A DNA stretch of 64,000 nt, from contig CANKVS010000007.1 in NCBI GenBank assembly GCA_947487155.1, positions 17,020 through 81,019 on the forward strand, given 5' to 3'. The stretch comes from an uncultured Flaviramulus sp. Lineage in GTDB: Bacteria > Bacteroidota > Bacteroidia > Flavobacteriales > Flavobacteriaceae. The notes under the pieces were generated by a model that did not search any database, was not told the origin of the DNA, and was given only the letters and a program-made list of their open reading frames with translations. Positions 21,968 to 40,289 of the stretch are shown here, one piece after another. How positions within the stretch are numbered: position 1 is the stretch's first letter; every line of letters begins with the position of its first letter. A program made the translations under genes and the position numbers.

Positions 21968-23416
21968 ATGTCGAAGTATACCGAAGATGATTTACGCGAA
22001 GAGCTAAAAACCAAAGAATATGAATATGGTTTTTATACTGATATAGAATCTGAAACATTTCCTATTGGTTTAAATGAAGATATTGTACGCGCTATTTCTA
22101 AAAAGAAAGAAGAACCACAATGGATGACCGATTGGAGATTGGACGCTTTTAAGGTTTGGAAAGATATGGCAGAACCTGATTGGGCAAATGTTAATTATGA
22201 AAAACCCGATTTTCAAGGTATTGCATATTACTCTGCTCCAACAGCAGTAGACCCTAATAAAACATTAGATGATGTAGATCCTGATTTATTAGCAATGTAT
22301 AAAAAATTAGGAATTTCTATTGATGAGCAGAAAAAGATGAACAATGTTGCTATGGATATTGTTGTAGATTCTGTTTCAGTTGCAACTACATTCAAGAAAA
22401 CATTAGGCGAAAAAGGTATTATTTTTATGAGTATTTCTGAGGCTATTAAAGAGCATCCAGAACTTGTAAGGAAACATTTAGGAACTGTAGTTCCTACAAA
22501 AGATAATTTTTATGCCGCTTTAAATTCGGCTGTATTTAGTGATGGAAGTTTCTGTTACATTCCAAAAGGTGTTCGTTGCCCAATGGAATTATCGACTTAC
22601 TTCAGAATTAATCAAGCAGGAACAGGTCAGTTTGAAAGAACGCTAGTAATTGCTGATGAAGGGAGTTACGTAAGCTACCTTGAAGGTTGTACCGCACCAA
22701 GTCGTGATGAAAACCAATTACACGCAGCAGTTGTAGAGTTAATTGCTTTAGATGATGCAGAAATTAAATATTCAACTGTACAAAACTGGTATCCTGGAAA
22801 TGCAGAAGGCAAAGGTGGTGTTTACAACTTTGTAACCAAACGTGGTTTATGCGAGAAAAACGCAAAAATCTCTTGGACACAAGTAGAAACAGGGAGTGCA
22901 GTGACTTGGAAATACCCAAGTTGTATCTTGAAAGGTGACAATTCTGTTGGTGAATTTTATTCAATTGCAGTTACAAATAATTATCAACAAGCCGATACTG
23001 GAACGAAAATGATTCATTTAGGTAAAAACACCAAATCAACCATCATTTCAAAAGGTATTTCAGCAGGAAAATCACAGAACAGTTATAGAGGATTAGTGCA
23101 AGTAAGCTCAAGAGCAGAAAACGCTCGTAATTTTTCTCAATGTGATAGTTTATTAATGGGTAATGAATGTGGTGCACATACATTCCCATATATAGAAGCT
23201 AAAAATAAATCAGCAAAAATAGAACACGAAGCGACTACTAGTAAAATTGGTGAAGATCAAATTTTCTATTGTAATCAACGTGGTATAGATACTGAAAAAG
23301 CCATTGCTTTAATAGTAAACGGATTTAGTAAAGAAGTTTTAAATAAGCTTCCTATGGAATTTGCTGTTGAAGCTCAAAAATTATTAGAAATAAGTTTAGA
23401 AGGAAGTGTTGGGTAG
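21968..23416 (+). CDS. sufB: Fe-S cluster assembly scaffold protein SufB.
   Basis: 482 aa with conserved SufB/SufD beta-helix core motifs. Confidence 0.9.
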
Positions 23417-23423
23417 TCACTTT

Positions 23424-23478
23424 TTGTCATTCCCTAGTTTAACTGAACGCAGTCGAAGTAAAAGCAGGAATCTCATTA
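23424..23478. repeat. GTCATTCCC-type intergenic repeat (Bacteroidetes REP-like).
   Basis: tgtcattccc...gcaggaatctca, related to the composite hairpin at 30519-30578. Confidence 0.5.
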
Positions 23479-23501
23479 ATTGAATCGAAAATATTAAGAA
23501 A

Positions 23502-23936
23502 ATGAAAAAAACATTTTTTATAGCATTAACTCTATTAGTTGGTATTTCAGCATTAATAAGCTGTAAAAAAGACGCTAAATCAGACGTTCAAAAAGAGGTA
23601 ATAGGTACAGACAGTCAAGAAAAAACAGAAAAACAAAATGATGGATTAACCTTATTAAAAGGAGAATTTGTTTATTATAAAGATGCTGCCGTATTACAAA
23701 CTCATGCTAACATTTATGGTGTATTTGTTACAGATAAAATGCTTGAGTTAAACAAACTAGCAGAGAAATATAAAAAAGAACCAACAGATATGGTTCCTGT
23801 TGAAATAAGAGGTAAAATCACTAACAAAAAAGATGATAAAATTCTTTGGGAAAATAAAGTTGAAATAGTAGAGATTCTAAATATTTCTAAACCTAAATCT
23901 GAAGAAAATAACGTTGTAAAATTAGGAAGCGAATAG
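23502..23936 (+). CDS. Hypothetical lipoprotein inserted between sufB and sufC.
   Basis: 144 aa with signal peptide and lipobox (LISC). Its stop overlaps the sufC start region. Confidence 0.55.
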   Translation: MKKTFFIALTLLVGISALISCKKDAKSDVQKEVIGTDSQEKTEKQNDGLTLLKGEFVYYKDAAVLQTHANIYGVFVTDKMLELNKLAEKYKKEPTDMVPVEIRGKITNKKDDKILWENKVEIVEILNISKPKSEENNVVKLGSE

Positions 23937-23937
23937 T

Positions 23938-24690
23938 ATGTTAAAAATAAATAATTTACACGCAAGTGTTGACGACAAAGCAATTTTAAGAGGTATTAAT
24001 TTAGAGGTAAAACCTGGTGAAGTTCATGCCATTATGGGGCCAAACGGTTCTGGAAAAAGCACCTTAGCATCAGTAATTGCTGGAAAAGAAGAATACGAAG
24101 TAACAGAAGGAAGTATTGAATTTAAAGATGAAGACATTGATGAATTAGCAGCCGAAGAACGTGCTCATAAAGGTGTGTTTTTATCATTTCAATACCCTGT
24201 AGAAATCCCAGGCGTATCGGTTACCAATTTTATTAAAACAGCAATAAACGAATCGCGTAAAGCACAGGGATTAGAAGACATGCCTGCCAAAGACATGCTA
24301 AAATTAATTCGCGAAAAAGCAGATTTATTAGAAATAGACAGGAAGTTTTTATCACGTTCGTTAAACGAAGGGTTTTCTGGAGGAGAAAAAAAACGTAACG
24401 AAATTTTTCAAATGGCGATGTTAGAACCTAAACTTGCCATTTTAGACGAAACGGATTCTGGTTTAGATATTGATGCCCTTCGTATTGTTGCAAACGGTGT
24501 TAACAAGTTAAAAAATAAAGATAATGCCACTATTGTTATAACGCATTACCAACGTTTGTTAGATTATATCGTTCCAGATTTTGTACACGTTTTATACAAT
24601 GGTAAAATTGTAAAATCGGGCACAAAAGAATTGGCTCACGAACTTGAAGAAAAAGGATACGATTGGATTAAAGAAGAAGTAAATGCCTAG
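23938..24690 (+). CDS. sufC: Fe-S cluster assembly ATPase SufC.
   Basis: Walker A GPNGSGKST, ABC signature and Walker B; 250 aa. Confidence 0.92.
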   Translation: MLKINNLHASVDDKAILRGINLEVKPGEVHAIMGPNGSGKSTLASVIAGKEEYEVTEGSIEFKDEDIDELAAEERAHKGVFLSFQYPVEIPGVSVTNFIKTAINESRKAQGLEDMPAKDMLKLIREKADLLEIDRKFLSRSLNEGFSGGEKKRNEIFQMAMLEPKLAILDETDSGLDIDALRIVANGVNKLKNKDNATIVITHYQRLLDYIVPDFVHVLYNGKIVKSGTKELAHELEEKGYDWIKEEVNA

Positions 24691-24698
24691 TTAGTATG

Positions 24699-24844
24699 CA
24701 GTATTCAGTCTTCAGTTAGCAGTCGCTTTCTCAATATCTGATTACGCTTACTAATCTATTCAAAATAAAACAGTAATAAAATATACGGTTTTAGTAATGC
24801 TTTTTTTGACTGCTTACTGAAGACTGATCACTGAAGACTGACAC
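24699..24844. repeat. Inverted-repeat element between sufC and sufD.
   Basis: The left arm cagtattcagtcttcagttagcagtc pairs with the right arm gactgcttactgaagactgatcactg at about 23 of 26 positions, with about 85 bp between them. The right arm also carries a direct repeat of actgaagactga. Confidence 0.6.
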
Positions 24845-24845
24845 A

Positions 24846-26159
24846 ATGGATTTAAAAGAAAAATTATTATCATCCTTTTTAGTATTTGAGAACAAAGTAG
24901 ATATTGATACTTATGTTCACGATGTTAGAAATGATGCTATAAAAGCTTTTGAAGAAAAAGGATTTCCAACTAAAAAAGAAGAAGCTTGGAAATACACCTC
25001 TTTAAACAAAATATTAAAAGAAGATTATAGTCTTTTTCCAAAGCAGGAAAATGCCTTAGAATACAAAAACATTAAAAAGTATTTTCTTTACGATATAGAT
25101 ACTTATAAAATTGTGTTTATAGATGGCAAGTACTCTTCACACCTATCGCAAACTACACACGACGGTATGGATGTTTGCTTAATGTCGGCAGCCCTAACAA
25201 AGCCTAAATATCGCTTAATTATTGAAAACTATTTTAATAAAGCCGCTACCAAAGATAGCTTACCATCGTTAAATACAGCATTTTCAAGCGAAGGCGCCTA
25301 TATTCATATTCCAAAAAACAAATTGGTTGAAAAGCCAATTCAAATTATACACTTTTCTACAGGAAATGAATCTGCAATTATGTTACAACCACGTAACCTA
25401 ATTGTTGTAGAAGAGAATTCGCATGTGCAAATCATAGAGCGTCATCAAAGTTTAACAAATAATGCCGTTTTAACCAATAGTGTTACCGAAATATTTGCTA
25501 AAAAACGAGCTATTGTTGATTATTACAAAATACAGAACGACAATAAAGATGCCTCTTTAATAGACAACACATTTATTAAACAAAAGCAAGAAAGTATTTG
25601 CTCTGTACATACATTTGCCTTTGGTGGCAAATTAATACGTAATAATCTTAACTTTTATCAAGAAGGAGAACGTATCGATTCTATATTAAAAGGTGTTACT
25701 ATTTTAAGCGACAAACAACATGTAGATCATAATACCCTGGTACATCATATAGAACCCAATTGTGAAAGTCATCAAGACTATAAAGGCATTTTTGGCGAAA
25801 ACTCAACAGGTGTTTTCAATGGTAAAATAATTGTTGAAAAAGAAGCACAAAAAACCAATGCCTTTCAAGCCAATAACAATATTTTAATAAGCGATAAAGC
25901 AACTATAAACACCAAACCTCAGCTCGAAATTTTTGCAGACGATGTTAAATGTTCACACGGTTGCACCATTGGACAATTAGACGAAAGTGCTATGTTTTAT
26001 ATGCGTTCGCGGGGAATTCCAGAAAAAGAAGCCAAAGCCCTTTTAATGTATGCCTTTAGTAATAACGTATTGAGTTCGGTTAAAATTCCAGAAATGAAAC
26101 AACGCATCACTAAAATTATTGCCAATAAATTAGGAGTAAATATTGGCTTCGATTTATAA
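24846..26159 (+). CDS. sufD: Fe-S cluster assembly protein SufD.
   Basis: 437 aa with a C-terminal SufBD beta-helix region; position after sufC. Confidence 0.85.
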   Translation: MDLKEKLLSSFLVFENKVDIDTYVHDVRNDAIKAFEEKGFPTKKEEAWKYTSLNKILKEDYSLFPKQENALEYKNIKKYFLYDIDTYKIVFIDGKYSSHLSQTTHDGMDVCLMSAALTKPKYRLIIENYFNKAATKDSLPSLNTAFSSEGAYIHIPKNKLVEKPIQIIHFSTGNESAIMLQPRNLIVVEENSHVQIIERHQSLTNNAVLTNSVTEIFAKKRAIVDYYKIQNDNKDASLIDNTFIKQKQESICSVHTFAFGGKLIRNNLNFYQEGERIDSILKGVTILSDKQHVDHNTLVHHIEPNCESHQDYKGIFGENSTGVFNGKIIVEKEAQKTNAFQANNNILISDKATINTKPQLEIFADDVKCSHGCTIGQLDESAMFYMRSRGIPEKEAKALLMYAFSNNVLSSVKIPEMKQRITKIIANKLGVNIGFDL

Positions 26160-26218
26160 AATTATTTGAAGCTATTTCCCGCTATCCACTGTATCTTTTT
26201 CTCGTACCTCAAAAAAGG

Positions 26219-27466
26219 ATGCCGTTTCTATCGGGGCTAGACATAAACGCTATGTTCAACGTAAACGACATAAGAAAAGACTTTCCCATTCTTTCACGTA
26301 AAGTAAATGGTAAACCTTTGGTGTATTTAGATAATGCAGCAACGTCACAAACACCTCAACACGTTATAGATATTATTGTATACTATTACTCAAACTATAA
26401 CGCCAACATTCACCGTGGTGTACACACCTTAAGTCAAGAAGCTACCGATTTATACGAACAAGCACGTATTAAAATTCAAAATCATTTCAATGCTAAATTT
26501 TCTCATGAAATCATACTAACATCAGGAACAACACATAGTATTAATTTAGTAGCAAATGGGTTTTCAGCACTATTAAAAAAAGACGATGAGGTTATTGTTT
26601 CAGCTTTAGAGCATCATAGTAATATTGTGCCTTGGCAAATGTTATGCGAGCGTACAGGTGCTATTTTAAAAGTTATCCCAATGAACGAAGCTGGCGAGTT
26701 GGAAATGGCTGAATACAACAATTTACTTTCAGAAAAAACAAAATTGGTTTTTGTAAATCACATCTCAAATGCTTTAGGTACCATAAATCCTATTGAATAT
26801 ATTATTGAAAAAGCACATGGTGTTGGTGCTGCTGTTTTAATTGATGGTGCGCAATCATGCCCACATATAAAACCCGATGTTCAAAAATTAGATGTCGATT
26901 TCTATGTCGCTTCAGCACATAAAATGTGCGGACCAACAGGCGTTGGTATGCTTTACGGAAAAGAAGAATGGCTCAATAAATTACCTCCATATCAAGGTGG
27001 TGGCGAAATGATTGCCGAAGTCACTTTTGAGAAAACAACTTACGCTAATTTGCCTCATAAATTTGAAGCAGGAACTCCAAATATTGCTGGAGGAATTGCC
27101 TTTGGAGCAGCTATAGATTATATGAATGGTATTGGTTTCAATGCTATTGCTTTATACGAAAACGACCTGCTAACCTATGCTACCAAAAAACTATCACAAA
27201 TAGATGGATTAAAAATTTACGGAACATCTAAAAACAAAACATCCGTCATTTCATTTAATTTAGAAGGTATTCATCCTTACGATGTGGGCACCATTTTAGA
27301 TAAATTAGGAATTGCTGTTCGTACTGGTCATCATTGTGCACAACCTATTATGGATTTTTTCTGTATCCCAGGAACCGTAAGGGCTTCATTTGCATTTTAT
27401 AACAAAAAAGCAGAGATAGATATTTTGGTAGAAGGTATAAAAAAAGCAAAAATAATGTTGGGCTAA
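26219..27466 (+). CDS. sufS: Cysteine desulfurase, SufS subfamily (class V aminotransferase).
   Basis: PLP lysine motif SAHKMCGPTGVG and active-site Cys in GHHCAQP; 415 aa. Confidence 0.9.
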   Translation: MPFLSGLDINAMFNVNDIRKDFPILSRKVNGKPLVYLDNAATSQTPQHVIDIIVYYYSNYNANIHRGVHTLSQEATDLYEQARIKIQNHFNAKFSHEIILTSGTTHSINLVANGFSALLKKDDEVIVSALEHHSNIVPWQMLCERTGAILKVIPMNEAGELEMAEYNNLLSEKTKLVFVNHISNALGTINPIEYIIEKAHGVGAAVLIDGAQSCPHIKPDVQKLDVDFYVASAHKMCGPTGVGMLYGKEEWLNKLPPYQGGGEMIAEVTFEKTTYANLPHKFEAGTPNIAGGIAFGAAIDYMNGIGFNAIALYENDLLTYATKKLSQIDGLKIYGTSKNKTSVISFNLEGIHPYDVGTILDKLGIAVRTGHHCAQPIMDFFCIPGTVRASFAFYNKKAEIDILVEGIKKAKIMLG

Positions 27467-27558: not shown

Positions 27559-29970
27559 ATGCAAAAACCTAACATTACACTTACCCTATTTTTATTAGTA
27601 TCGTTAATCGTAAAATCGCAAAACACCTCAACGGTTTTTCCAGGAGCTGATGAAAAAACGCCAGCCAAAGCACAATACTTTTCTTGGATAAACAATACTA
27701 ATGAAGGCACTACAGAAGAGCACACCTTAATCAATTTTAACTTTTTTAAATGGCTAAAAAACGAGTACGGTATGCAACTAGATATTTATGCTTTTGATGC
27801 CGGTGCTATAGATGGTAGGCTTTTTTATGGTAGTATGAACTCCAATAGGTTTAAAACTCAATTTCCTAATGGGTTCGATCCCATACATAAAGAAGCAAAA
27901 AATATAGGGTTTACATTAGGTTTATGGGGAGGTCCGGATGGTTTTGGTAACACTCCAAAAGAAGAAAAAGCCAGAACAGATATGATGGTTAAATTAGTAA
28001 GAGATTACGATTTTAACCTATTTAAATTCGATCAAGTTTGTGGGCAATTACGACCCGAAAAAGAAGATGCTTTTATAAATATGATGATTGAAGCACGTAA
28101 ACACAGACCAGATCTTATTTTATTAAATCATAGATTAGCATTAACCGAAAAAGGCTTACCGCACGCTACTACCTTTTTGTGGGAAGGCGTAGAAACCTAT
28201 GTAGATGGGCATATAAAAAACGATAGAACAGCAACGCATCATCGTGTTGGTAATTTACTTCGTGGTTATACCCCTGGTATGAAACGTTTAACCGAAGACC
28301 ACGGCGTATGTCTCTCATCGTGTTTAGATTATTGGGAAGACGATTTAATTCTTCAGGCGTTTCATAGAAATTTAATTCTAGCCCCAGAAATATACGGAAA
28401 CCCCTGGTTATTAAGAGATGACGAATATTCAAAACTGGCAAGAATTTTCAATCTTCATAAGCAATATAGAGATATTATAGTTGAAGGTATTAAACTGCCA
28501 GAAGCTCAATATGGTATGCATGCCATTTCTAGAGGAGACAATAATACCCGATTATTGGTTTTAAAAAACCTGTCGTGGCAACCTATTACCTATCAAATAG
28601 ATTTAAACGAAAGTATTGGTTTACTAGCCTCTAATAACGCTGTAGAAGTTAAACAATATCACCCTTTTGAACAGGTTATTGGTAACTTTAAATACGGAAA
28701 CAAAACAACAGTAACCGTTTTACCATTTAGGTCTTGTTTGGTTAAAGTTTCTAATACAAACAATCACGATTTAAGCTTACTAGGTACAAATTATGAAGTG
28801 GTTAAAAATATTGAAGGACAACCTGTAGAAATTAATGTTTTAGGTTACTCTGGAACCACCTCTAGTATAAAATTAAATGATTTTAGTACATTCAAATCGG
28901 CTAAAGTTGATGATAAAAATGTATCAAGATTACTAAAAGGAAAATGGTTAAAAGTAAATTTTGAAGGTGAAAAATTAAATCGGTTTTGGCATAGAAAATT
29001 AACCGATTTAAAACCTGTTGATTTCCCTACTGATGCAGAAGCCTTATACGAAACCACTTGTTACGCTGCAAATAGTAATGCTTTTGAGGTGCGTTCGCTA
29101 TTCCGTTCTGGCGAGACCAAAATACCACAAGTAAAAGCGGCCAGAGATGCGTTTTTTAATCAAAAAACATTTGTAGATAGAGGAGTTTGGGATAAAAATT
29201 TATTTGATAACAATTATAGCACGTCTTTTTACGTAGGTAAGCATCGCGATAAAGTTGTAAAAATTAAAAAAGCGGCTTTTAGGTTAGATTTTGGTGAACC
29301 TATTTTTATCGACAAACTAAATATTACATCTCCAGACACCTATTCGTTTATGCCAAGAAACGTTGAAGAAGCTATTATTGCCGAAGTGTCTTCAGATTTA
29401 AAAACTTGGAAAAAAGTTATTTTTATGGGCAACCTTAAAATGAGCTTAGATTTATCAAATAGCGGTAAAATACGCTATGTAAGAATTACAGACTTTGCAG
29501 ATAGATTGTCTGAAGTTTCGGGGTATTATAAAGGCAAAAAACTAGATGCTTCAAAATGGAAAGCTTCTAATTTATTGGGGAATTATAAAGAAATGAATTT
29601 TGATAAAGCTTTTTCAGGATTATTTACTATAAATGAAATGCATAAAAACAGTTATTTAGCTGTGGCATTAAATGGATATCATGGCAAAGAAGGGGCTTAT
29701 GCGGCTTTACGTGTTGATGGCAAAATTATTGGCGCGCCAGACAGAAGTATTTCTTACCCGTCTAACTCTTGGGAAGCTGCTGTATGCGATAAATGTATTT
29801 TCGATAAAAATTTCACGTATTACTTTCCAGTGACTAAAGACATGATTGGAAAAACAGTTGAAGTGGTTGTTTTAGGAACTGCCGATTGCGATCCAAATTT
29901 AAAAAATGAAGTTTGGATTACCAGTTACCCTATTCCTTTTCAAAAAAAGAAATTGGTGTTAACACCTTAA
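27559..29970 (+). CDS. Large secreted protein, possibly a glycoside-hydrolase-like domain plus a C-terminal discoidin/F5-8-type-C-like domain, inserted between sufS and sufE.
   Basis: 803 aa with a signal peptide. Family not recognised with confidence. Confidence 0.5.
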   Translation: MQKPNITLTLFLLVSLIVKSQNTSTVFPGADEKTPAKAQYFSWINNTNEGTTEEHTLINFNFFKWLKNEYGMQLDIYAFDAGAIDGRLFYGSMNSNRFKTQFPNGFDPIHKEAKNIGFTLGLWGGPDGFGNTPKEEKARTDMMVKLVRDYDFNLFKFDQVCGQLRPEKEDAFINMMIEARKHRPDLILLNHRLALTEKGLPHATTFLWEGVETYVDGHIKNDRTATHHRVGNLLRGYTPGMKRLTEDHGVCLSSCLDYWEDDLILQAFHRNLILAPEIYGNPWLLRDDEYSKLARIFNLHKQYRDIIVEGIKLPEAQYGMHAISRGDNNTRLLVLKNLSWQPITYQIDLNESIGLLASNNAVEVKQYHPFEQVIGNFKYGNKTTVTVLPFRSCLVKVSNTNNHDLSLLGTNYEVVKNIEGQPVEINVLGYSGTTSSIKLNDFSTFKSAKVDDKNVSRLLKGKWLKVNFEGEKLNRFWHRKLTDLKPVDFPTDAEALYETTCYAANSNAFEVRSLFRSGETKIPQVKAARDAFFNQKTFVDRGVWDKNLFDNNYSTSFYVGKHRDKVVKIKKAAFRLDFGEPIFIDKLNITSPDTYSFMPRNVEEAIIAEVSSDLKTWKKVIFMGNLKMSLDLSNSGKIRYVRITDFADRLSEVSGYYKGKKLDASKWKASNLLGNYKEMNFDKAFSGLFTINEMHKNSYLAVALNGYHGKEGAYAALRVDGKIIGAPDRSISYPSNSWEAAVCDKCIFDKNFTYYFPVTKDMIGKTVEVVVLGTADCDPNLKNEVWITSYPIPFQKKKLVLTP

Positions 29971-31788: not shown

Positions 31789-32715
31789 ATGAAAAAACTA
31801 TTATTATTATGTGTATTTTTTGTTGGGATAATCTCAATAAACGCACAAACTAAAGAGGAATTACAAACTCAAAAAGCAGAAAAACAAGCTGCTGCCGATG
31901 CTTTACAAGCAGAAGCAAACGCAATACAAGCTAAAATTGATGCCTTACCAGGTTGGAGAATAGGTGCTTTTGGTACCATTGGTGGAAGTTTATCGAATTT
32001 TAATAACTGGTATGCACAAGGTGCACCTAATAACTCATCTGGTAATATTGGTTTTACTTTAAACGCTTATGCTAACCAAATTCAAGAAAAATATTTTTGG
32101 AGAAATAGCTTAACCACAAACTTAAATTGGGTAAAGTTAGATAATAAAGATATTAGTACAGATGATGATAGCTTTAACCCAACTACTGATGTTTTTAATA
32201 TCTCATCTTTATACGGTAGAAATATTAATAAAACATTAGCTATTTCTGGTTTAATGGAATATAGAACAACCTTATTAGATAATTTTAACGATCCTGGATA
32301 CTTAGATATAGGTGTTGGAGCTACATGGACTCCTATACAAGATTTAATAGTTGTTATACATCCTTTAAACTATAACTTTGTGTTTAGCAGCGGAGATACC
32401 GTTTTTGAATCTTCTTTGGGAGCAAAAATTGTAGCAGATTATACAAAGCAAATAGGAGCTATTAATTTTAAAACAAACTTATCTATGTTCCAAAGTTATA
32501 AATCTTCAAATTTATCTAACTGGACTTGGACAAACTCCTTTGGGTACACCTTATGGAAAATGATTGGTGTTGGTTTCGATTTTGGTTTAAGAAGCAACAA
32601 ACAAGAAGCTTTAAATTATGCACTAGCTCAAACACCTGTTATTGCAACGTCTTTTGATGATGTAGACAACGATTTACAAACCTACTACACCATAGGCTTA
32701 AGCTATAAGTTTTAA
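31789..32715 (+). CDS. Secreted protein with an N-terminal coiled coil and a C-terminal predicted outer-membrane beta-barrel (DUF3078-like).
   Basis: Signal peptide, alternating hydrophobic beta-strand pattern, and a terminal LSYKF aromatic end. Confidence 0.55.
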   Translation: MKKLLLLCVFFVGIISINAQTKEELQTQKAEKQAAADALQAEANAIQAKIDALPGWRIGAFGTIGGSLSNFNNWYAQGAPNNSSGNIGFTLNAYANQIQEKYFWRNSLTTNLNWVKLDNKDISTDDDSFNPTTDVFNISSLYGRNINKTLAISGLMEYRTTLLDNFNDPGYLDIGVGATWTPIQDLIVVIHPLNYNFVFSSGDTVFESSLGAKIVADYTKQIGAINFKTNLSMFQSYKSSNLSNWTWTNSFGYTLWKMIGVGFDFGLRSNKQEALNYALAQTPVIATSFDDVDNDLQTYYTIGLSYKF

Positions 32716-32900
32716 AGTAAAATAAAACGATTTTTTATATAAAAGCATTTCTTAAAAGAAGTGCTTTTTTTTTGACTAATACCATTTCTCATCTGAAATG
32801 ACTGTAATAAATCGCACTTTTCTCCTTTCTATTTCAACATAAAAAGAAACCGTAACTTAGGCTATACTCTATTTTTCTGTTTTCTATAAAGAAAAAAATC

Positions 32901-32942
32901 ATCAATTTCTTTTACAGTAATTTCAAACAAGAAATGGTATAA
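32901..32942. repeat. 42-bp conserved element, copy B (atcaatttcttttacagtaatttcaaacaagaaatggtataa).
   Basis: 40 of 42 nt identical to 20981-21022. It lies in the 380-bp AT-rich leader of the 33096-40289 operon. Confidence 0.7.
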
Positions 32943-33095
32943 AATGTAATCTACTGTAATTTAAATCATAATTAACAATGATATAAAATTCTTTCAAATT
33001 TTATAATAAAATACACTTTATCTATTTTTTTTGTATTTTAACGATTATTTTTAATATATTGCCCTCTTAAAATGACTATTTAATACAAATGCATT

Positions 33096-33461
33096 ATGGT
33101 TAAAAAGAAAATTGTTTTAGCAGAAGACAACTCAACCTTATCATTGCTACTAAAGTTTAGATTAGAAAAAGAAGGTTATAATCTATTTGCCGCAGTAGAT
33201 GGAAAAGAAGCACTTCAATTAATAGAAGCAGAAGAACCTGATTTAATAATAACAGACATTATGATGCCTTTTATTAGTGGTTTAGAAGTGATTAGTCATG
33301 TAAGATTAAAATTTGATTTAGACACACCTATTATTGTATTCTCTTCTGCAGGTCAAGAAGAAATGGTATTAAAAGCCTTTAATTTAGGAGCCAATGATTT
33401 TATGGGAAAACCATTTAGCCCAAACGAATTAATAATTAGAGTTAAAAGGTTATTAAATTAA
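33096..33461 (+). CDS. Stand-alone response-regulator receiver (CheY-like REC only).
   Basis: 121 aa with a phospho-acceptor Asp in LIITDIMMP and the conserved acidic pocket and Lys (FMGKPF). Confidence 0.8.
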   Translation: MVKKKIVLAEDNSTLSLLLKFRLEKEGYNLFAAVDGKEALQLIEAEEPDLIITDIMMPFISGLEVISHVRLKFDLDTPIIVFSSAGQEEMVLKAFNLGANDFMGKPFSPNELIIRVKRLLN

Positions 33462-33467
33462 TATGGC

Positions 33468-34571
33468 ATGATTATTAATAACGGTATATTAGAATATATA
33501 GAAAAATTTCCTTTTCTAGTTCAGTTAGCTTATATATTAAGCTGTGTTCTTTTTACTGCCATTATTGTTCTTACTATATATTTAAAAATTATACGATCGT
33601 CTCTTAGGAAAAAACATGAAATACGTGTAAAGTTAAAGGCTGACTATGAGGCGTTATTAATTGAATATCTTTACTCTGGTGATGAAACTAATGAAATTAG
33701 TGAAATACAAGAACTAATAATTAATAAGTTAAAAAAAGTTATTCATTCCAAGTTTAATCGTAAAATTATAATATCTATTATATACAATTTAATGAATGAG
33801 GTCTCTGGAGAAATGTCAGATTCTATAAAAACATTATACTTTAAAACAGGGCTTTACAATTATGCACAAAACAGGTTAAAAAATAAAAACTGGTATATTA
33901 TTGCTAAAGGAATAGGTGAATTAACACGATTTAAAATAGGTGAAGCTCATGATGACGTTGCTAAATTTATAACACATCAAAGGAGCGAAGTTCGTAAAGA
34001 AACTCAATTATATTTAGTAAACTTATTCCGATTTAACGGGTTAACATTTCTTAATGATTTAAAAACACCACTATCAGAATGGGCTCAAGTACAATTATTA
34101 GAAACACTACAAAAGTTTGATGATCAACAAATTTGCGATATAAAACCTTGGCTAAAATCTTCAAACAATACAGTGGTTTTATTTGCCTTAAAATTAGCTC
34201 AAATTTATAATCAGTTTGAAGTTAAAGACACTTTAATAGAACTATTATCGCATAACGAAAAAACCATCAGGCTCCAAGTAATAGAAGTATTAACACACTT
34301 ATATGGCATTGAAGCTAAAGAAATGCTTAAAGCTAACTTTAACAATTTAAGTTTAGAAGAACAAATTAGCTTCTTTGGCTTACTAGAAAAGCTAGTGGTT
34401 CCATCTGACGAGCCTTTTGTTGAAAAACATTTATTTCATAAAAACTTCGAAATACAGCTATTAGCACTTAAAATATTAAAATCTATAAACCTAGATAAAT
34501 TCATGGGCTTAAATAAAAAAGTTTCTAAGAAAAGTAATCCTGAAATTTTCAAATTTGTAAAAAACATATAA
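33468..34571 (+). CDS. Membrane-anchored HEAT/ARM-like repeat protein.
   Basis: One N-terminal TM helix followed by repeated about 30-aa helical units (..EVRKETQLYLVNL.., ..EKTIRLQVIEVLTHL.., ..NFEIQLLALKILKSI..). It is 7 bp from the RR gene and 3 bp before the GT2 gene. Confidence 0.55.
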   Translation: MIINNGILEYIEKFPFLVQLAYILSCVLFTAIIVLTIYLKIIRSSLRKKHEIRVKLKADYEALLIEYLYSGDETNEISEIQELIINKLKKVIHSKFNRKIIISIIYNLMNEVSGEMSDSIKTLYFKTGLYNYAQNRLKNKNWYIIAKGIGELTRFKIGEAHDDVAKFITHQRSEVRKETQLYLVNLFRFNGLTFLNDLKTPLSEWAQVQLLETLQKFDDQQICDIKPWLKSSNNTVVLFALKLAQIYNQFEVKDTLIELLSHNEKTIRLQVIEVLTHLYGIEAKEMLKANFNNLSLEEQISFFGLLEKLVVPSDEPFVEKHLFHKNFEIQLLALKILKSINLDKFMGLNKKVSKKSNPEIFKFVKNI

Positions 34572-34574
34572 ATT

Positions 34575-36005
34575 ATGGATACTAGTACGCTTCAAATAAT
34601 TTTAAAAATTCTCCATTACATATTTTTTGCATATGCTTTTTTTGCTATTACATCTTATATAGTACTTTCTGTTATTTCTGGAAAAGAAACTCTAGAATAT
34701 CTTAAAAAAAATAGTTTTGTAAACTACAAAGATATTTTATCATCTACCATGTCTCCATCAATAACCATTATAGCTCCCGCATATAATGAAAGCCTTAATG
34801 TTGTTGAAAATGTGAGGTCTCTACTATCTAATCACTATGTAAACTACAAAGTAATTATTATTAACGACGGTAGTACAGATGATAGTTTAGAAAAACTAAT
34901 TGCTACTTACGACTTAGAGGCAATCGATTTTATTATAAATAATAAAATTAAAACAAAACCACTACGTACAGGTGTTTTTAAATCTAAAAACCCTGCTTTT
35001 GAAAAACTTATGGTGGTTGATAAAGAAAATGGCGGAAAAGCAGATGCACTAAATATGGGGTTAAATATTAGCAAAACTAAGTACGTTGCTTGTATTGATG
35101 TAGATTGCCTGCTTTTGGAAGATGCTTTACAAAAAATGATAAAACCTTTTTTAGAAGTAACCAATGCCAAAGTAATTGCTGCTGGTGGTGTTATTAGAAT
35201 AGCAAACTCTTGTATTATACGTGGTGGTAAATTAATAGATGTAAATCTGCCAAAAAACTTATTAGTTCAAGCACAAATTTTAGAATATTTAAGAGCTTTT
35301 TTATTAGGAAGAATGGCATGGAGCAGATTAAACGGTTTACTTGTAATTTCTGGAGCCTTTGGTATTTTAGATAAAGAAACTGCTATTGCAGTTGGAGGAT
35401 ATGACACTGAAACCGTTGGAGAAGACATGGAAATTATTGTGAGAATGAGACGCTATATGGAAGAAAAAGGAGAAAAATACAGAGTCTCTTACATTCCTGA
35501 TCCTTTATGTTGGACTGAAGCCCCAGACACTTACAAAATTTTTATATCACAACGAAACAGATGGACTAGAGGTACTATAGAAACTTTAAATAAACACAGG
35601 AAAATAGGGTTTAACAGAAATTATGGAACCTTCGGGTTATTAAGTTATCCGTATTGGTTAATTTTTGAAAGACTAGCTCCTTTAATTGAAGCTGTTGGCT
35701 TAGTGTACTTTATCATTTTAGTAGCTTTAAGAGAGGTTAAGTGGGAATATGCTTTATCATTCTTAATATTAGCATACATGTTTTCTGTACTGTTCTCTAT
35801 TGTTGCTATATATTCAGAAGAACTTACATTTCATCAATACAAAAAGAAAGGCACAGGTTTTAAATTAATTTTATTAAGTGCCTTAGAGCCTTTTATATTA
35901 CACCCTTTTATATTATATGCTGCTGTAAAAGGGAATTACGATTACTATTTTAACAGGAAAAAGAAATGGGGATCTATGGTGCGAAAAGGCTTAACTACTA
36001 CTTAA
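34575..36005 (+). CDS. Family-2 processive beta-glycosyltransferase (PgaC/IcaA/NodC/cellulose-synthase-like polysaccharide synthase).
   Basis: N-terminal TM segment, a GT-A core with DGSTDDS and CIDVDC (DxD), and the processive-synthase signature QRNRWTRG (QxxRW). There are 4 C-terminal TM helices and no PilZ domain. Confidence 0.8.
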   Translation: MDTSTLQIILKILHYIFFAYAFFAITSYIVLSVISGKETLEYLKKNSFVNYKDILSSTMSPSITIIAPAYNESLNVVENVRSLLSNHYVNYKVIIINDGSTDDSLEKLIATYDLEAIDFIINNKIKTKPLRTGVFKSKNPAFEKLMVVDKENGGKADALNMGLNISKTKYVACIDVDCLLLEDALQKMIKPFLEVTNAKVIAAGGVIRIANSCIIRGGKLIDVNLPKNLLVQAQILEYLRAFLLGRMAWSRLNGLLVISGAFGILDKETAIAVGGYDTETVGEDMEIIVRMRRYMEEKGEKYRVSYIPDPLCWTEAPDTYKIFISQRNRWTRGTIETLNKHRKIGFNRNYGTFGLLSYPYWLIFERLAPLIEAVGLVYFIILVALREVKWEYALSFLILAYMFSVLFSIVAIYSEELTFHQYKKKGTGFKLILLSALEPFILHPFILYAAVKGNYDYYFNRKKKWGSMVRKGLTTT

Positions 36006-36030: not shown

Positions 36031-38448
36031 ATGAAACTTAATTTTAAAAATATTGATGCTTTTATTTATTTATGTGCGATCGCATCTTTAATTGTTGTTT
36101 TTTGGTTAATTGGACTGACTGAAGTCTTTCTATCAAAATCCTATACAACCAATATAATTGGAGCCCTATTTTTAAAATTCACAAACGATTTTTGGGCATG
36201 TTTTTTAATAGGTTTAACCGTTTTTCCTTTGTATTTACTTTTACATATTTTTATAAAAAAATATGCTTTTACAATAATAAGAATCCTTTTTATATTCATT
36301 ATACTCGCTCAATTTTCACTAGTAAAGTATAGTATTACCACGATGTTAAATTTAGGTGCAGATATTTTAGGCTATTCGTTTGATGATGCCTTTAGTACAG
36401 TTTCAGTATCAGAATCTATTTCTTTTACTTATTTTCTACCTTTTATAATTTTTCCATTATTATTCTTTGTATTCTATGCTCTGTTAAAAAACCGTTTATC
36501 TACAAATAAATTAAAAGGAGTAAGTTTAATTATTATACTCTTTTTTGGAAGTATTAAATTAATTTTCTCAAATACTTTTGAAGCAAAACATCAAAACAAA
36601 ATTGTTTTTTTTGTCGATAATATCATTGCTTTTCAAAATGAAAAAAGCCAATTAAATGCATTTAATTTTTCACAACGTAGCGATTACCCGTTATTAAAAC
36701 CTTATAATCAATCAAAAGATGTATTATCCTCATTTATTAATACGAAAGACGAAAAACCAAATATTGTTGTAATAGTAGTTGAAGGTTTAGGTGGTGAGTT
36801 TGTAAACAACAATGCTTTTAGCGGTTTTACGCCGTATATAGATTCTATTATACCCCATGCCTTATATTGGGATAATTTTGTAAGTACTACAGGGCGATCT
36901 TTTGGAATACTACCATCATTATTTGGTTCCCTACCATACGGTGAAAAAGGGTTTTTGGAGTTAACAGACACACCTTCTCACGCATCCTTAATAAGTGTTT
37001 TAAAAGCCAATGGATATCAAACCAATTATTACTCTGGAGGACCATCTAGCTTTGACAGAAAAATTAATTTCTTAGAGTATAACGGCATTGATAATTTAAT
37101 AGACGAAAATAAATACGGTCCTAGTTATACAAAAACGGCAAGTAACGATGGTGGGTTTTCTTGGGGATATCCAGATAGTGAAATTTTTAAAAAAGCCTTT
37201 TCTTCTTTAAATGTTGAAAAACAACCCAGACTCGATATTGTAATGACACTGTCTTCTCACGAGCCTTTTGAATATCCAAATAAGGAAGTTTACATGGATG
37301 AAGTTGAAAAACGACTCGAAAACTTAGATAAATCGGAAGCATTAGAAAATAAAATTGAAAATCATAAAGATATTTTTGGTTGTTTATTATTTACAGATAA
37401 TGCCATTAAAAATTTTATGGAGGACTATAAAAAAAGACCCGATTATTCAAATACCATTTTTATAATTACTGGAGATCACAGACTTATTCCTATTGAACAA
37501 AAAGATAAGTTATGCAGGTTTCACGTTCCGTTTTTAATTTACAGTCCCTTATTAAAAACATCAGAAAAGTTTAAGTCAATTTCATCTCATTGGGATGTAA
37601 CCCCTAGTGTATTACGTTTTTTAACAAACAATTACAAGTTTAAACCCATAGAAAATACCGCTTGGATGGGTAGTGGCTTAGACACTGTAAAACAATTTAG
37701 AAACGTTAAAAAAATACCTTTAATGCGGTACAAAGGAAATATAAATGATTTTATTTATGAAAACTATTTTTATTCTGATGGAGAATTATTCAAAATAAAT
37801 GAGAATTTTGGAACTTATAAAGTACATGAAGATGGTCTTTTAAAAACCATTTCAGATTCTTTAATGGCTTTTAAAAAAATGAATGCCTATGTTACACAAC
37901 ACAACAAAATTTTTCCAGATTCACTTAATATTTATATAACACCAAAAACTAAATTTTCTAAAGAACAATTAGCAGAGATTAGCCAATATTCAAAAGAAAA
38001 AACATTTGATGAATTATTGTTAACAGCTAGAGATTTGTCTCAAAAAAAACAATATGATACTACACGTTTATTATGCGACTATATTTTAAATGAGTTTCCA
38101 AATTACACAGATGCTAGAATACTAAAAGGAAGAACTTTAGCTTGGGAACAAAATTATAGAGAATCTGAATCTGTTTTATTAAACGCTCTTAAAAGATCTC
38201 CTTATTATGATGATGCTTATTTGGCGATTTTAGATATGTATTGGTGGTCTGGTCAAGAAAAAAAATCTATAAGCATTTTTAATCAAGCTATTAATAATGA
38301 CTTAACAAATCCTGAAATAAGTTTTAAAATGGCTAAAGCTTACAACCGAATGAATCGTATTAATACATCTAAAAAAATAGTAGATAGCTTAATTAAAATC
38401 TATCCAAATGTCTCTGAATATAAAACTTTTAAAAAAGCCTTAAAATAG
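36031..38448 (+). CDS. Polytopic membrane alkaline-phosphatase-superfamily transferase (LtaS/OpgB/BcsG/EptA-like sulfatase fold) fused to C-terminal TPR repeats.
   Basis: About 5 N-terminal TM helices, then a sulfatase-type core (PNIVVIVVEGLGGEF ... TTGRS ... ITGDHR), then about 170 aa of TPR-like helices. Confidence 0.7.
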   Translation: MKLNFKNIDAFIYLCAIASLIVVFWLIGLTEVFLSKSYTTNIIGALFLKFTNDFWACFLIGLTVFPLYLLLHIFIKKYAFTIIRILFIFIILAQFSLVKYSITTMLNLGADILGYSFDDAFSTVSVSESISFTYFLPFIIFPLLFFVFYALLKNRLSTNKLKGVSLIIILFFGSIKLIFSNTFEAKHQNKIVFFVDNIIAFQNEKSQLNAFNFSQRSDYPLLKPYNQSKDVLSSFINTKDEKPNIVVIVVEGLGGEFVNNNAFSGFTPYIDSIIPHALYWDNFVSTTGRSFGILPSLFGSLPYGEKGFLELTDTPSHASLISVLKANGYQTNYYSGGPSSFDRKINFLEYNGIDNLIDENKYGPSYTKTASNDGGFSWGYPDSEIFKKAFSSLNVEKQPRLDIVMTLSSHEPFEYPNKEVYMDEVEKRLENLDKSEALENKIENHKDIFGCLLFTDNAIKNFMEDYKKRPDYSNTIFIITGDHRLIPIEQKDKLCRFHVPFLIYSPLLKTSEKFKSISSHWDVTPSVLRFLTNNYKFKPIENTAWMGSGLDTVKQFRNVKKIPLMRYKGNINDFIYENYFYSDGELFKINENFGTYKVHEDGLLKTISDSLMAFKKMNAYVTQHNKIFPDSLNIYITPKTKFSKEQLAEISQYSKEKTFDELLLTARDLSQKKQYDTTRLLCDYILNEFPNYTDARILKGRTLAWEQNYRESESVLLNALKRSPYYDDAYLAILDMYWWSGQEKKSISIFNQAINNDLTNPEISFKMAKAYNRMNRINTSKKIVDSLIKIYPNVSEYKTFKKALK

Positions 38449-38463
38449 GTAACCAAATATATT

Positions 38464-39714
38464 ATGCGCAAATCAATTTTAATATTGTTTTTAATAAGTT
38501 CTTTTTCTTATGCTCAAACAAAAGTGTTTAATGGAGACCCCGACAAAGCTTTTGAGGTTGCCCGCAAATTAGCATTTAATAAACAACGCAAACAAGCTCA
38601 AGATTCTTTATTACTAATTCTAACAAAATATCCAGATTATCATGATATAAGATCCTTTTTGGCAAGCACTTATTCTTGGGATGGTGATTATAAAAAAGCA
38701 AAAAAAGAATTTGATTATATACTTAAAAAAAGCCCTAAACGATTAGATACTTGGCAAGCTGCTATTAAAAACGAACTATGGAGAACAGCAGCTTTTAGTG
38801 CTTTAGAAATGAGTGATAAAGCCTTAAAATATTTTCCAAAAAATCCAGACATCTTGTATTTAAAAGCAAGTGCTGAAGACGCTACAGATAACCATGAAGA
38901 AGCTTTATTAACCATTAATAAAATATTAAAAGACAATCCAGATCATGAAAAAACAAAAGCTTACAAAGCTAGTTTAATAGATAAGTTAAGCCTTAACACT
39001 ATAGGACTAAAAGCTTCGGTTGATATTTATTCTGAAGTATTCGACCCCATGCAGTATTATTTATTAAAGTACGTTAGAAATACAAAATATGGTAGTATTC
39101 ATAGTAAAATTAACTTTAGTAGAAGGTTTGCATCTAATGGCGCTCAATTCGAAATTGATATGTATCCTCGAATAGCAAAAGGCTTATATGCATATATGAA
39201 CTTTGGAGTATCTAATTCCTTTTTATATCCAGATATAAGATATGGTGCAGAGTTACACAAATCGTTACCAAAAAGTTTCGAAGCCTCTCTTGGATTTAGA
39301 GCTTTAAAATATAGTAGTGGGATTACTAATATTTATACTGGTTCTGTAGGATGGTATAGCGGAAATAGTTATTGGTCTTTTAGAGTTTATGTAACCCCAG
39401 GAGAACCTGCTGCAAGTAAATCGGGGACATTAAGTTATAGAAAATACAGAAGAGATGCTAACAATTATTTTAGTATAGATGCTGGTATGGGGTTTTCTCC
39501 AGACATTTATAGGTTTGATTTTGAAAACAATGAAGATTCAATTATAAATCTTAATTCTCAAAAATTCAATCTAGGCTATTATTTTTCATCTAAAAACAAT
39601 AAAAACTATTGGGGAATTCAATCAGGAATTTCACATCAAGAAATTAGTTTTAACCCTGGTTCATACTTCTGGATTTATTCCTTTTCATTATCTTGGGACA
39701 TGAAATTTAGATAA
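38464..39714 (+). CDS. TPR-repeat plus outer-membrane beta-barrel protein (PgaA/BcsC/PelB-like exporter, short form).
   Basis: Signal peptide, about 170 aa of TPR, then about 230 aa with alternating aromatic/hydrophobic beta-strand periodicity ending ...SWDMKFR. Confidence 0.6.
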   Translation: MRKSILILFLISSFSYAQTKVFNGDPDKAFEVARKLAFNKQRKQAQDSLLLILTKYPDYHDIRSFLASTYSWDGDYKKAKKEFDYILKKSPKRLDTWQAAIKNELWRTAAFSALEMSDKALKYFPKNPDILYLKASAEDATDNHEEALLTINKILKDNPDHEKTKAYKASLIDKLSLNTIGLKASVDIYSEVFDPMQYYLLKYVRNTKYGSIHSKINFSRRFASNGAQFEIDMYPRIAKGLYAYMNFGVSNSFLYPDIRYGAELHKSLPKSFEASLGFRALKYSSGITNIYTGSVGWYSGNSYWSFRVYVTPGEPAASKSGTLSYRKYRRDANNYFSIDAGMGFSPDIYRFDFENNEDSIINLNSQKFNLGYYFSSKNNKNYWGIQSGISHQEISFNPGSYFWIYSFSLSWDMKFR

Positions 39715-39734: not shown

Positions 39735-40289
39735 ATGAATCAAAAACTTAAAACATCCATAGCATTTGCTAAAAATTTATTGGTTACTGGAGCCATATCT
39801 GAAACTAGTAGACAAGTTGAAATTGATATTTGTAAAAACATTTCAAAAGAAGAAAATAAAATTATTGTCGAATTTGGAATGGGACATGGTAATATCACTA
39901 AAGAAATATTAAATACCATAGCTCCAACATCAAAATTATATGCTTTTGAAGTAAAGGAAAGTTTTTGCAATCACGTTAAAAGTATTATTTCAGACGATAG
40001 ACTTATTATTATTAATGATGGGGCCCAAAACTTAAAAAAACATATACAGCAAGATATAAATACTGTAATATCTTCAATTCCATTTTCTTTCTTTAGCAAA
40101 GAAAAAGGTTTGGCTATTATACAAGACGCTTACGATCTTTTAGAGAATAATGCATACTATAGCCAAGTTTTATATACTAAATTCAATTTTAAAAAGTTTC
40201 AAAAAATATTTGAGGAATGCGAAATGACTTCAAACAAAAACTTGTTTACAGAATATATTTATCATTGTAAAAAAACAGCTAATACATAG
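39735..40289 (+). CDS. Small class-I SAM-dependent methyltransferase of the KsgA/Erm/PmtA-like family.
   Basis: The N-terminal ...NLLVTGAISETSRQVEIDI... plus motif I IIVEFGMGHGNITKEIL resembles the rRNA adenine dimethylase/PmtA fold. It is only 184 aa. Confidence 0.55.
   Translation: MNQKLKTSIAFAKNLLVTGAISETSRQVEIDICKNISKEENKIIVEFGMGHGNITKEILNTIAPTSKLYAFEVKESFCNHVKSIISDDRLIIINDGAQNLKKHIQQDINTVISSIPFSFFSKEKGLAIIQDAYDLLENNAYYSQVLYTKFNFKKFQKIFEECEMTSNKNLFTEYIYHCKKTANT

Follow-up and report, generated by a model that had tools for sequence, protein, structure and literature searches.

A predicted LtaS-type phosphotransferase with a periplasmic TPR tail, encoded in a widespread and apparently undescribed candidate polysaccharide-secretion operon of marine Flavobacteriaceae

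BcsG, which joins five transmembrane (TM) helices to an alkaline phosphatase (AlkP)-fold domain, binds the synthase BcsA and adds phosphoethanolamine (pEtN) taken from phosphatidylethanolamine (PE) (PMC8892547). Here we consider an 805-residue protein of similar plan, together with the operon in which its gene lies, from an uncultured Flaviramulus sp. of the Flavobacteriaceae; the window analyzed is a stretch of 64,000 nucleotides (GenBank assembly GCA_947487155.1, contig CANKVS010000007.1, positions 17,020 to 81,019 of the forward strand). Like BcsG, this protein (hereafter, the enzyme) connects five TM helices through a linker to a periplasmic AlkP-fold domain, a predicted transferase, and its likely partner is a processive GT2 synthase. 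The scheme that we propose for its operon further resembles the BcsG/BcsA/BcsC system in drawing on a phospholipid headgroup and in exporting its product through a TPR arm and an outer-membrane barrel (PMC8892547). The two systems also differ. The enzyme has no sequence match to BcsG at E ≤ 10, and its first metal ligand is Glu, where BcsG has Cys. The whole TPR scaffold of the Bcs system is carried by BcsC, whereas half of it is carried by the enzyme in the window. Finally, unlike Bcs, the operon has no cyclic di-GMP (c-di-GMP) module, and its barrel is of the 14-strand YaiO type.

Other described systems share further features with the locus. LtaS, LtaP, and VP1736 (PDB entry 3lxq) provide the best matches in sequence and fold, have the same layout of five TM helices plus an extracellular domain, and share with the enzyme the nucleophile, the Glu/Asp/His metal site, and the equivalent of His416. 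However, the host of the enzyme is Gram negative, the residues of the LtaS pocket are replaced, and LtaS has neither a TPR tail nor an operon with a GT2 synthase and a pore. OpgB (MdoB) and OpgH illustrate how an LtaS-clade enzyme can decorate a GT2-made glycan in a Gram-negative periplasm, but OpgB has no TPR, the osmoregulated periplasmic glucan (OPG) is not exported, and the OPG system lacks an outer-membrane component. PbgA (YejM) likewise combines five TM helices with an AlkP-like periplasmic domain and has a scaffolding or sensing role; it lacks the catalytic set that the enzyme keeps, only a side branch of the enzyme's family being degenerate. In the pairs AlgK-AlgX, PgaA-PgaB, and PelB-PelA, a periplasmic TPR scaffold holds a polymer-modifying enzyme at the exporter, and the TPR protein AlgK has been found to bind the modifying enzyme AlgX (PMC9734138). 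The link in the Alg, Pga, and Pel systems is noncovalent, with the TPR on the outer-membrane side, and the modifying enzymes are acetyltransferases, deacetylases, or hydrolases rather than phosphotransferases. In the window, by contrast, the inner-membrane enzyme itself carries a TPR module, whose paralogue sits on the pore.

Our preferred reading, which we hold with modest confidence, is that the enzyme serves a synthase-dependent polysaccharide secretion machine in two ways, as its modifying enzyme in the periplasm and as a strut, phospho-decorating the nascent polymer while tethered to the exporter. In the scheme that we infer, the GT2 synthase, which is closest to the PgaC/IcaA type, would polymerize a sugar chain and pass it through the inner membrane. 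The LtaS-type enzyme, held next to the synthase by its five TM helices, would move the phospho-alcohol headgroup of an outer-leaflet phospholipid onto Ser290 and hand it to the nascent chain, with release of diacylglycerol. A flexible linker and the TPR tail would span the periplasm, where the tail would either pair with its paralogue, the TPR arm of the YaiO-type barrel, or lengthen that arm; in this way, decoration would be coupled to export. The machine would be switched on not by c-di-GMP but by a phosphorelay (kinase, Hpt, and receiver-only regulator) acting through a membrane-anchored HEAT-like protein. The enzyme would then be functionally analogous to BcsG acting on cellulose and to OpgB acting on periplasmic glucans, and its TPR tail would make covalent the kind of link that joins AlgK to AlgX.

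The enzyme is encoded by an open reading frame (ORF) at 36031-38448 (+) with an ATG start. A first-pass annotation, made from the sequence alone, had given these coordinates and the motifs PNIVVIVVEGLGG, TTGRS, and ITGDHR, and the ORF list and translation confirm both. We found more than 1,600 homologues, of which the best 120 are all near full length (~700 to 825 residues, mostly ~805), which excludes chance as the source of the ORF. The product comprises three parts, given below with the codons of the catalytic residues.

36031..36567 (+), part 1, five-helix membrane domain, residues 1-179 (hydropathy and model helices)
36748..37926 (+), part 2, periplasmic LtaS-type alkaline-phosphatase-fold domain, residues 240-632 (Pfam, PDB matches, Foldseek, and residue conservation)
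36781-36783, 36898-36900, 37258-37260, and 37474-37479 (+), codons of the catalytic residues E251, S290, H410, and D482-H483, respectively
37987..38445 (+), part 3, periplasmic TPR tail, residues 653-805 (Pfam, model, and orthologue domains)

Kyte-Doolittle hydropathy identified five TM segments (residues ~11-29, 57-75, 80-98, 134-152, and 161-179), and these are matched by helices 7-34, 42-74, 76-104, 132-155, and 158-178 of an AlphaFold model built on aligned orthologues. Basic residues cluster at the N terminus, in the turn between TM2 and TM3 (KK76-77), and in the turn between TM4 and TM5 (KNRLSTNKLK). According to the positive-inside rule, this pattern places the N terminus on the inside and everything after residue 180 in the periplasm, in keeping with the initial suggestion of about five N-terminal TM helices and an extracytoplasmic core. 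Within the membrane domain, conservation peaks in the periplasmic loop between TM3 and TM4 (residues 97-131), where mean pairwise identity is 77%, compared to 48% for the whole TM domain, and the NCBIfam alignment to the LtaS model extends back to residue 114. This loop is plausibly, and we think probably, the site of the lipid donor. Beyond the membrane domain, Pfam recognizes Sulfatase (PF00884) at residues 243-529 (E = 8e-32) and TPR_19 at residues 742-803 (E = 9e-9), and both domains are present in all 28 aligned orthologues.

To place the catalytic domain, we compared it with structures and with curated families. A single-sequence search of the PDB returned only VP1736 of Vibrio parahaemolyticus (3lxq, E = 4e-20). 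The orthologue profile matched 3lxq (4e-22), Bacillus subtilis LtaS (2w8d, 5e-12), Listeria LtaP (4uop, 9e-8), Staphylococcus aureus LtaS (2w5q, 3e-7), and Listeria LtaS (4uoo, 7e-5), and it matched no BcsG, EptA, or MCR chain even at E ≤ 10. By fold, Foldseek ranks 1 to 13 were all LtaP, VP1736, or LtaS, followed by PbgA (ranks 14 to 16) and true sulfatases; EptC (rank 33) and EptA (rank 49) stood behind all of these, and BcsG was not among the top 50 matches. Identity to LtaS, LtaP, and VP1736 is just 17 to 19%. In NCBIfam, the best match is OpgB phosphoglycerol transferase I (E = 3e-10), with 39.5 bits against a cutoff of 572, and the LtaS equivalog gives 35.8 bits against a cutoff of 970. 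Because both scores lie far under the cutoffs, we assign the enzyme to the LtaS/OpgB clade (COG1368) as an orthologue of neither protein. The first-pass annotation had grouped LtaS, OpgB, BcsG, and EptA together as its family. The LtaS/OpgB part of that grouping agrees with both sequence and fold, whereas BcsG and EptA are kin only at the level of the superfamily. A BcsG-type pEtN transferase was rejected on the identity of the first metal ligand and for lack of a sequence relationship or a close fold relationship, and the lipid A pEtN transferases EptA and MCR were rejected as the closest family owing to their low fold ranks and the lack of a sequence match. Position 251 does hold a BcsG-type Cys ligand in P0173 and P0176, two distant relatives.

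The active site was located by HMMER profile alignment to the LtaS proteins of S. aureus and B. subtilis, with the column of Thr300 fixed by the entry of the T300A mutant (2w5r). On the S. aureus protein, E251, S290, H410, and D482/H483 of the enzyme correspond to E255, T300, H416, and D475/H476. All five residues (with Ser or Thr at position 290) are kept in the enzyme and its 27 aligned orthologues, and the motif around the nucleophile reads GR[ST]F in every one of them. Across 135 diverse relatives, conservation was high for E251 (124), S/T290 (127; Thr in 107 and Ser in 20), H410 (123), D482 (123), and H483 (133). We therefore see an intact LtaS-type catalytic set, and S290 is the predicted nucleophile. 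The Thr pair of TTGRS (T286/T287) was rejected for this role, as position 287 is Ala in P0114 and P0119 and varies among Thr, Ser, Ala, Gly, and Gln across the family; S285 is a less likely candidate, being Ala in 13 of the 135 relatives.

This alignment, which had been suggested at the outset as a check for a pseudo-enzyme, bears directly on two other readings of the protein: a scaffold or sensor without catalytic activity, as in PbgA/YejM, and a true sulfatase acting as a hydrolase. Fold ranks 14 to 16 for PbgA are in line with the former and the Pfam name "Sulfatase" with the latter. With all of its nucleophile and metal ligands present, however, the window protein is not of the PbgA/YejM type. 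A formylglycine sulfatase would require the motif C/S-x-P-x-R at the nucleophile site, which reads VSTTGRSFGILP (TTGRSFGILP), and transferases typically possess a lipid-facing domain of five TM helices such as this one. Given the intact catalytic set and the missing CxPxR motif, we reject both versions for the window protein and rate their combined probability as very low. Catalysis does appear to have been lost elsewhere in the family, which also speaks in favor of a dead scaffold: a 12-member subclade (P0150, P0179, P0182, P0184, P0187, P0196, P0198, P0211, P0241, P0246, P0248, and P0270) lacks several of E251, S/T290, H410, and D482. Its members, which are likely pseudo-enzymes, retain the TM domain and the TPR tail, and this retention in the absence of catalytic residues points to a scaffold role that is independent of catalysis.

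The C-terminal region contains true TPRs. TPR_19 scored above its cutoff in all 28 orthologues, and the model shows nine helices (pLDDT, the predicted local distance difference test, 80 to 95) in which the A-helices start at residues 659, 693, 727, 761, and 795, an exact 34-residue period. The expectation of a C-terminal TPR domain was thus correct in kind but not in length: instead of about 170 residues, the tail consists of four TPR repeats and a capping helix in ~150 residues (653-805), joined to the catalytic domain by a low-confidence linker of ~20 residues (625-643). Mean identity of the tail among orthologues is 58%, indicating purifying selection. The protein encoded by the next gene (38464-39714; hereafter, the pore) also begins with a TPR domain, as predicted, following a signal peptide. 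Its TPR arm covers residues 20-175 (nucleotides 38521-38988), and its YaiO-family barrel covers residues 178-416 (nucleotides 38995-39711). In the model of the pore (pLDDT 86), nine helices with the same 34-residue period precede 14 strands. Residues 653-804 of the tail align end to end with residues 16-171 of the pore (25% identity, E = 2e-11), and the TPR arm of the pore matches the tails of ~85 family representatives, down to E = 4e-21. The tail is thus a paralogue of the arm, each protein carrying one copy of a module of ~150 residues. The TPR-plus-barrel layout of the pore is analogous, not homologous, to that of known exporters, and we assume that the pore is probably a polysaccharide exporter.

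The enzyme and pore genes belong to a cluster of five genes on one strand, separated by gaps of 3 to 25 bp. The remaining features of the cluster are as follows.

32716..33095 (+), ORF-free AT-rich spacer of 380 bp that includes the terminator of the upstream gene
33096..33461 (+), receiver-only response regulator of 121 residues with D54 and K104 present (Pfam Response_reg, E = 4e-27)
33468..34571 (+), membrane-anchored HEAT-like repeat protein of 367 residues (weak HEAT_2 match)
34575..36005 (+), processive GT2 synthase of 476 residues (Pfam GT2 families, Chitin_synth_2)
38464..39714 (+), outer-membrane TPR and YaiO barrel protein, the pore, of 416 residues (signal peptide, TPR, and barrel)
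39735..40289 (+), small S-adenosylmethionine-dependent methyltransferase of 184 residues (weak matches to OlsG, PmtA, and KsgA)

To examine conservation of the cluster, we used 19 Flavobacteriaceae genome loci, including those of Flaviramulus, Flavivirga, Pontimicrobium, Snuella, Algibacter, Thalassobellus, Hwangdonia, and Oceanihabitans, as well as five distant loci and 80 metagenome loci (about 100 overall). The regulator, HEAT-like protein, GT2 synthase, enzyme, and TPR-YaiO protein keep one collinear order in each of the 17 genome loci of sufficient length, and the other two, on short contigs, hold the downstream part in collinear order. The five components recur, sometimes rearranged, in the distant and metagenome loci. 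The GT2 synthase is the most conserved gene of the cluster (80 to 89% identity among the genome loci). It has the motifs DVD175, GEDME (around residue 282), and QRNRW326, one N-terminal and three C-terminal TM helices, and a match to NCBIfam PgaC_IcaA (E = 1e-37) that is below the family cutoff.

In several lineages, components of the cluster are fused. P0199 (Sediminibacterium, 1,192 residues) and P0236 (Sphingobacterium, 1,141 residues) are fusions of the synthase with the enzyme whose GT2 parts are 54% and 50% identical, respectively, to the window synthase over 468 residues, and there are approximately ten more such fusions among the metagenome loci. In L037 (4599-8402, +), GT2 synthase, enzyme, and TPR tail form one polypeptide of 1,267 residues, with the TPR-YaiO pore gene next to it; synthase, enzyme, and pore would thus be on just two polypeptides in that lineage. 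P0208 is a fusion of a receiver domain with the enzyme, and P0263 is a probable fusion of the HEAT-like protein with the enzyme (24% identity, E = 3e-10). These fusions are the strongest evidence, by sequence comparison, that enzyme, synthase, and regulators of the synthase act as a single complex at the inner membrane. Two other kinds of extension were observed. In P0262, an Acyl_transf_3 domain precedes the enzyme in the same polypeptide, and five members of the tail-less clade (P0228, P0230, P0240, P0254, and P0261; 807 to 831 residues) have another C-terminal extension of ~140 to 175 residues with no Pfam match.

The first-pass annotation had also raised the idea that a TPR scaffold attached to the enzyme would couple polymer modification to export. 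Strong comparative support for this idea comes from the GT2 gene directly upstream, the TPR-barrel gene directly downstream, the gene fusions, and the paralogy of the two TPR modules. The same genes could be read as an OPG-like system, in which a GT2-made periplasmic glucan receives phosphoglycerol from an OpgB-like enzyme and stays in the periplasm, with the TPR-barrel protein serving merely as an anchor. OpgB being the best NCBIfam match, OpgH and OpgB forming a known GT2/LtaS-like pairing, and the barrel falling outside the known exporter class all fit such a system. However, the OpgB score is less than a tenth of its cutoff, the 476-residue synthase is of the PgaC/IcaA type rather than OpgH-like, neither OpgG nor OpgD was present among the window proteins (Pfam and NCBIfam), and synthase-dependent export has as its hallmark a TPR arm joined to an outer-membrane barrel. 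We consider an OPG-like system improbable.

Regulation of the cluster would depend on its first two genes. The receiver-only protein is a probable phosphorylation-dependent switch of the system. The HEAT-like protein, which has one N-terminal TM helix (residues 17-35) with the remainder cytoplasmic, always lies between regulator and GT2 synthase in the loci and is a probable adaptor linking the two. Pfam and NCBIfam identified no PilZ, GGDEF, GIL, or MshEN domain in any operon protein, and in our reading a c-di-GMP receptor is replaced by the regulator together with the HEAT-like membrane protein. In Myxococcus, a single-domain regulator directly activates an exopolysaccharide enzyme (PMC12802240). 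A hybrid kinase with an Hpt domain often adjoins the regulator in relatives; the position directly upstream of it (e.g., L006, 4713-5030; L029, 4643-6973) holds either a stand-alone Hpt gene, as in Flavivirga and others, or a hybrid kinase-receiver-Hpt gene. No cognate histidine kinase or Hpt gene was found in the window, including the spacer at 32716-33095 where relatives have one. With only this ORF-free spacer upstream, the regulator of the window is an orphan. In six loci (L044, L046, L048-L050, and L057), the HEAT-like protein upstream of the GT2 synthase is about twice as long (717 to 895 residues), with the added half at its C terminus.

Systems with and without the TPR tail differ in the organization of their loci. 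We annotated the 78 loci that have a complete enzyme gene by means of purpose-built profiles. The enzyme is tailed in 32 loci. In 24 of the 28 tailed loci with the pore in view, the pore gene is directly downstream on the same strand, and it often overlaps the stop codon of the enzyme gene. The remaining 46 enzymes are tail-less; here, the pore gene is usually convergent, and a gene that we call unk387 lies between the two. This gene was present in 32 of the 46 tail-less loci (e.g., L022, 10014-11177, -; also L064, L067, L073, L077, L079, L085, L090-L096, L102, and L104) and in none of the 32 tailed loci; it is absent from the window and from L001-L019. It encodes a protein of ~385 residues with an N-terminal TM helix that is conserved in tail-less systems and has no match in Pfam or the PDB. 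The product of unk387 may stand in functionally for the tail. Two tandem TPR modules occur in just two pores (L021, 1-1160, -; L084, 13062-14768, -), both of which go with tail-less enzymes. In L021, the two TPR copies of ~150 residues are split by a Ser/Thr/Asn/Gly-rich linker of ~120 residues. It is as though the enzyme's module had been transferred to the pore in these systems.

These patterns bear on what the tail does. With the same enzyme and operon, the tail might bind the polymer, peptidoglycan, or itself, so as to oligomerize or position the enzyme, instead of docking to the pore. Polymer binding is also known for the TPR domains of PgaA, BcsC, and AlgK (PMC9734138), and many tail-less relatives keep a one-module pore. 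In distant lineages, moreover, tail and pore modules are barely separable by profile score, which a generic polymer-binding module fits as well as a heterodimer does. Against these points, the TPR module occurs only at the C terminus of the enzyme or the N terminus of the pore and nowhere else in the loci, double-module pores accompany only tail-less enzymes, and the enzyme and pore genes of tailed systems are adjacent and often overlapping. We regard a tail that binds something other than the pore as unlikely, though the most serious of the alternatives, and continue to favor one that would dock to the TPR arm.

Several findings weigh against our preferred reading as a whole. Many systems function without the tail, so it is not generally essential to the machine. 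The mutual exclusivity of the tail and unk387 rests on about three events: a neighbor-joining tree built on the catalytic core shows only about three changes of tail state, with the tail-less forms making up one clade, and a Fisher test (P = 3e-11) thus overstates the evidence. The barrel of the pore is a YaiO type of the CymA/OmpG/FadL class, unlike the 16- to 18-strand barrels of PgaA, BcsC, PelB, and AlgE. The residues that form the glycerol-phosphate pocket of LtaS (H347, W354, and R356) are S335, D342, and K344 in the enzyme. The AlphaFold model of the enzyme is mediocre (pLDDT 70 overall and below 50 in the active-site loops; predicted template modeling score 0.47), its confident regions being the TM helices and the tail. 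Lastly, we found no biochemical or genetic data on any family member in the open-access literature.

The altered pocket is relevant to the group that would be transferred. D342 is conserved in 116 of the 135 relatives and position 344 is variable, and we read these replacements as a headgroup pocket different from that of LtaS. An acidic residue at position 342 would suit an amine such as ethanolamine. Phosphoglycerol is the group transferred in LtaS and OpgB, and PE dominates the phospholipids of Flavobacteriaceae. Given this dominance of PE and the altered pocket, phosphoethanolamine appears at least as likely as phosphoglycerol to be the group that the enzyme transfers. The pocket also argues against a role as an LtaS-like polymerase, which would build poly(glycerol-phosphate), resembling teichoic acid, on a GT2-made glycan or glycolipid primer. 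True lipoteichoic acid (LTA) synthases and the LTA primase are the closest solved relatives of the enzyme, which retains the nucleophile, the metal site, and H410. Nevertheless, the glycerol-phosphate-binding residues of LtaS are not conserved, the LtaS equivalog score is a small fraction of its cutoff, and the synthase has the processive QxxRW motif and a multi-TM channel architecture, unlike a synthase of primer glycolipids. We give a polymerase little credence, about as little as the OPG-like system.

Relatives of the enzyme are numerous. At E ≤ 1e-30, we counted 744 in a representative library of 1.84 billion proteins. Named examples come from Flavobacteriaceae, Chitinophagaceae, Sphingobacteriaceae, and Gemmatimonadaceae and include Cellulophaga baltica, Sediminibacterium roseum, Sphingobacterium thalpophilum, and a metagenome-assembled genome of Gemmatimonadaceae. 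Databases list these relatives as "sulfatase-like hydrolase/transferase" or "LTA synthase family protein." The fusion of enzyme and TPR can already be seen in the domain annotations of databases, and the family has many members, so the protein itself is not a discovery. The five-gene candidate polysaccharide-secretion operon of marine Flavobacteriaceae, on the other hand, is widespread and apparently undescribed, as we found no description of the enzyme, of the operon, of LtaS-like enzymes in Gram-negative exopolysaccharide systems, or of YaiO-type barrels in polysaccharide export in the open-access literature. Nor did that literature describe a function for YaiO, which it mentions only as a PCR marker. 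It is conceivable, though we would not put it at an even chance, that the operon represents an undescribed class of secretion system, common in Bacteroidota and present also in Gemmatimonadota. Such a class would have a phosphorelay in place of c-di-GMP, a YaiO barrel as its exporter, and an LtaS-clade decorator that also supplies half of a split TPR bridge, with the bridge module movable or replaced by the protein of ~385 residues.

Marine Flavobacteriaceae are major colonizers of particles, and the way in which they build extracellular matrix is poorly understood. The operon offers a compact and testable machine with one synthase, one modifying enzyme, and one pore, which in some lineages would span both membranes with two polypeptides. 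If our reading is correct, it would extend the phospholipid-derived decoration of polymers, as in pEtN-cellulose and the phosphoglycerol of OPGs, to a new phylum and to another branch of the enzyme superfamily. It would likewise provide a first function for the orphan YaiO barrel family and show how such machines are switched on in phyla where c-di-GMP is rarely used. The fusion of enzyme and TPR, together with its shuffled variants, amounts to a natural experiment on the coupling of modification to export, for which the Alg, Pga, and Pel systems required crystal structures of noncovalent complexes.

Features at the borders of the cluster are less directly tied to this reading. The strong terminator of the upstream gene (32741-32768) consists of a 12-bp stem and a T-run, and the operon promoter presumably lies within the spacer that contains it (32716-33095). 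A sigma-70 scan gave fewer sites than in shuffled sequences; Bacteroidota promoters differ from that consensus. At the other end, the methyltransferase gene follows the pore gene in 11 of the 19 genome loci and also in L040. We treat it as accessory because it is found in only these 11 related genomes, and its membership in the system is uncertain. Its match to the lipid N-methyltransferase OlsG reaches 48.6 bits, with a cutoff of 350. If the methyltransferase acts on the headgroup of the donor lipid, it could alter the group transferred by the enzyme.

HflX follows the cluster on the opposite strand. Farther upstream, an ORF of 803 residues (27559-29970, +) had no Pfam or NCBIfam match at E ≤ 0.01. 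The GC content of the window is 32%, and the surroundings of the operon at 4075-5913 (-), 21968-27466 (+), and 31789-32715 (+) include a protein with IPT/TIG domains sorted by the type IX secretion system, SufB/SufD/SufS of the Suf Fe-S assembly system, and a DUF3078 protein. These ordinary chromosomal neighbors indicate that the operon resides in a housekeeping region that is syntenic with its relatives, rather than on a mobile element.

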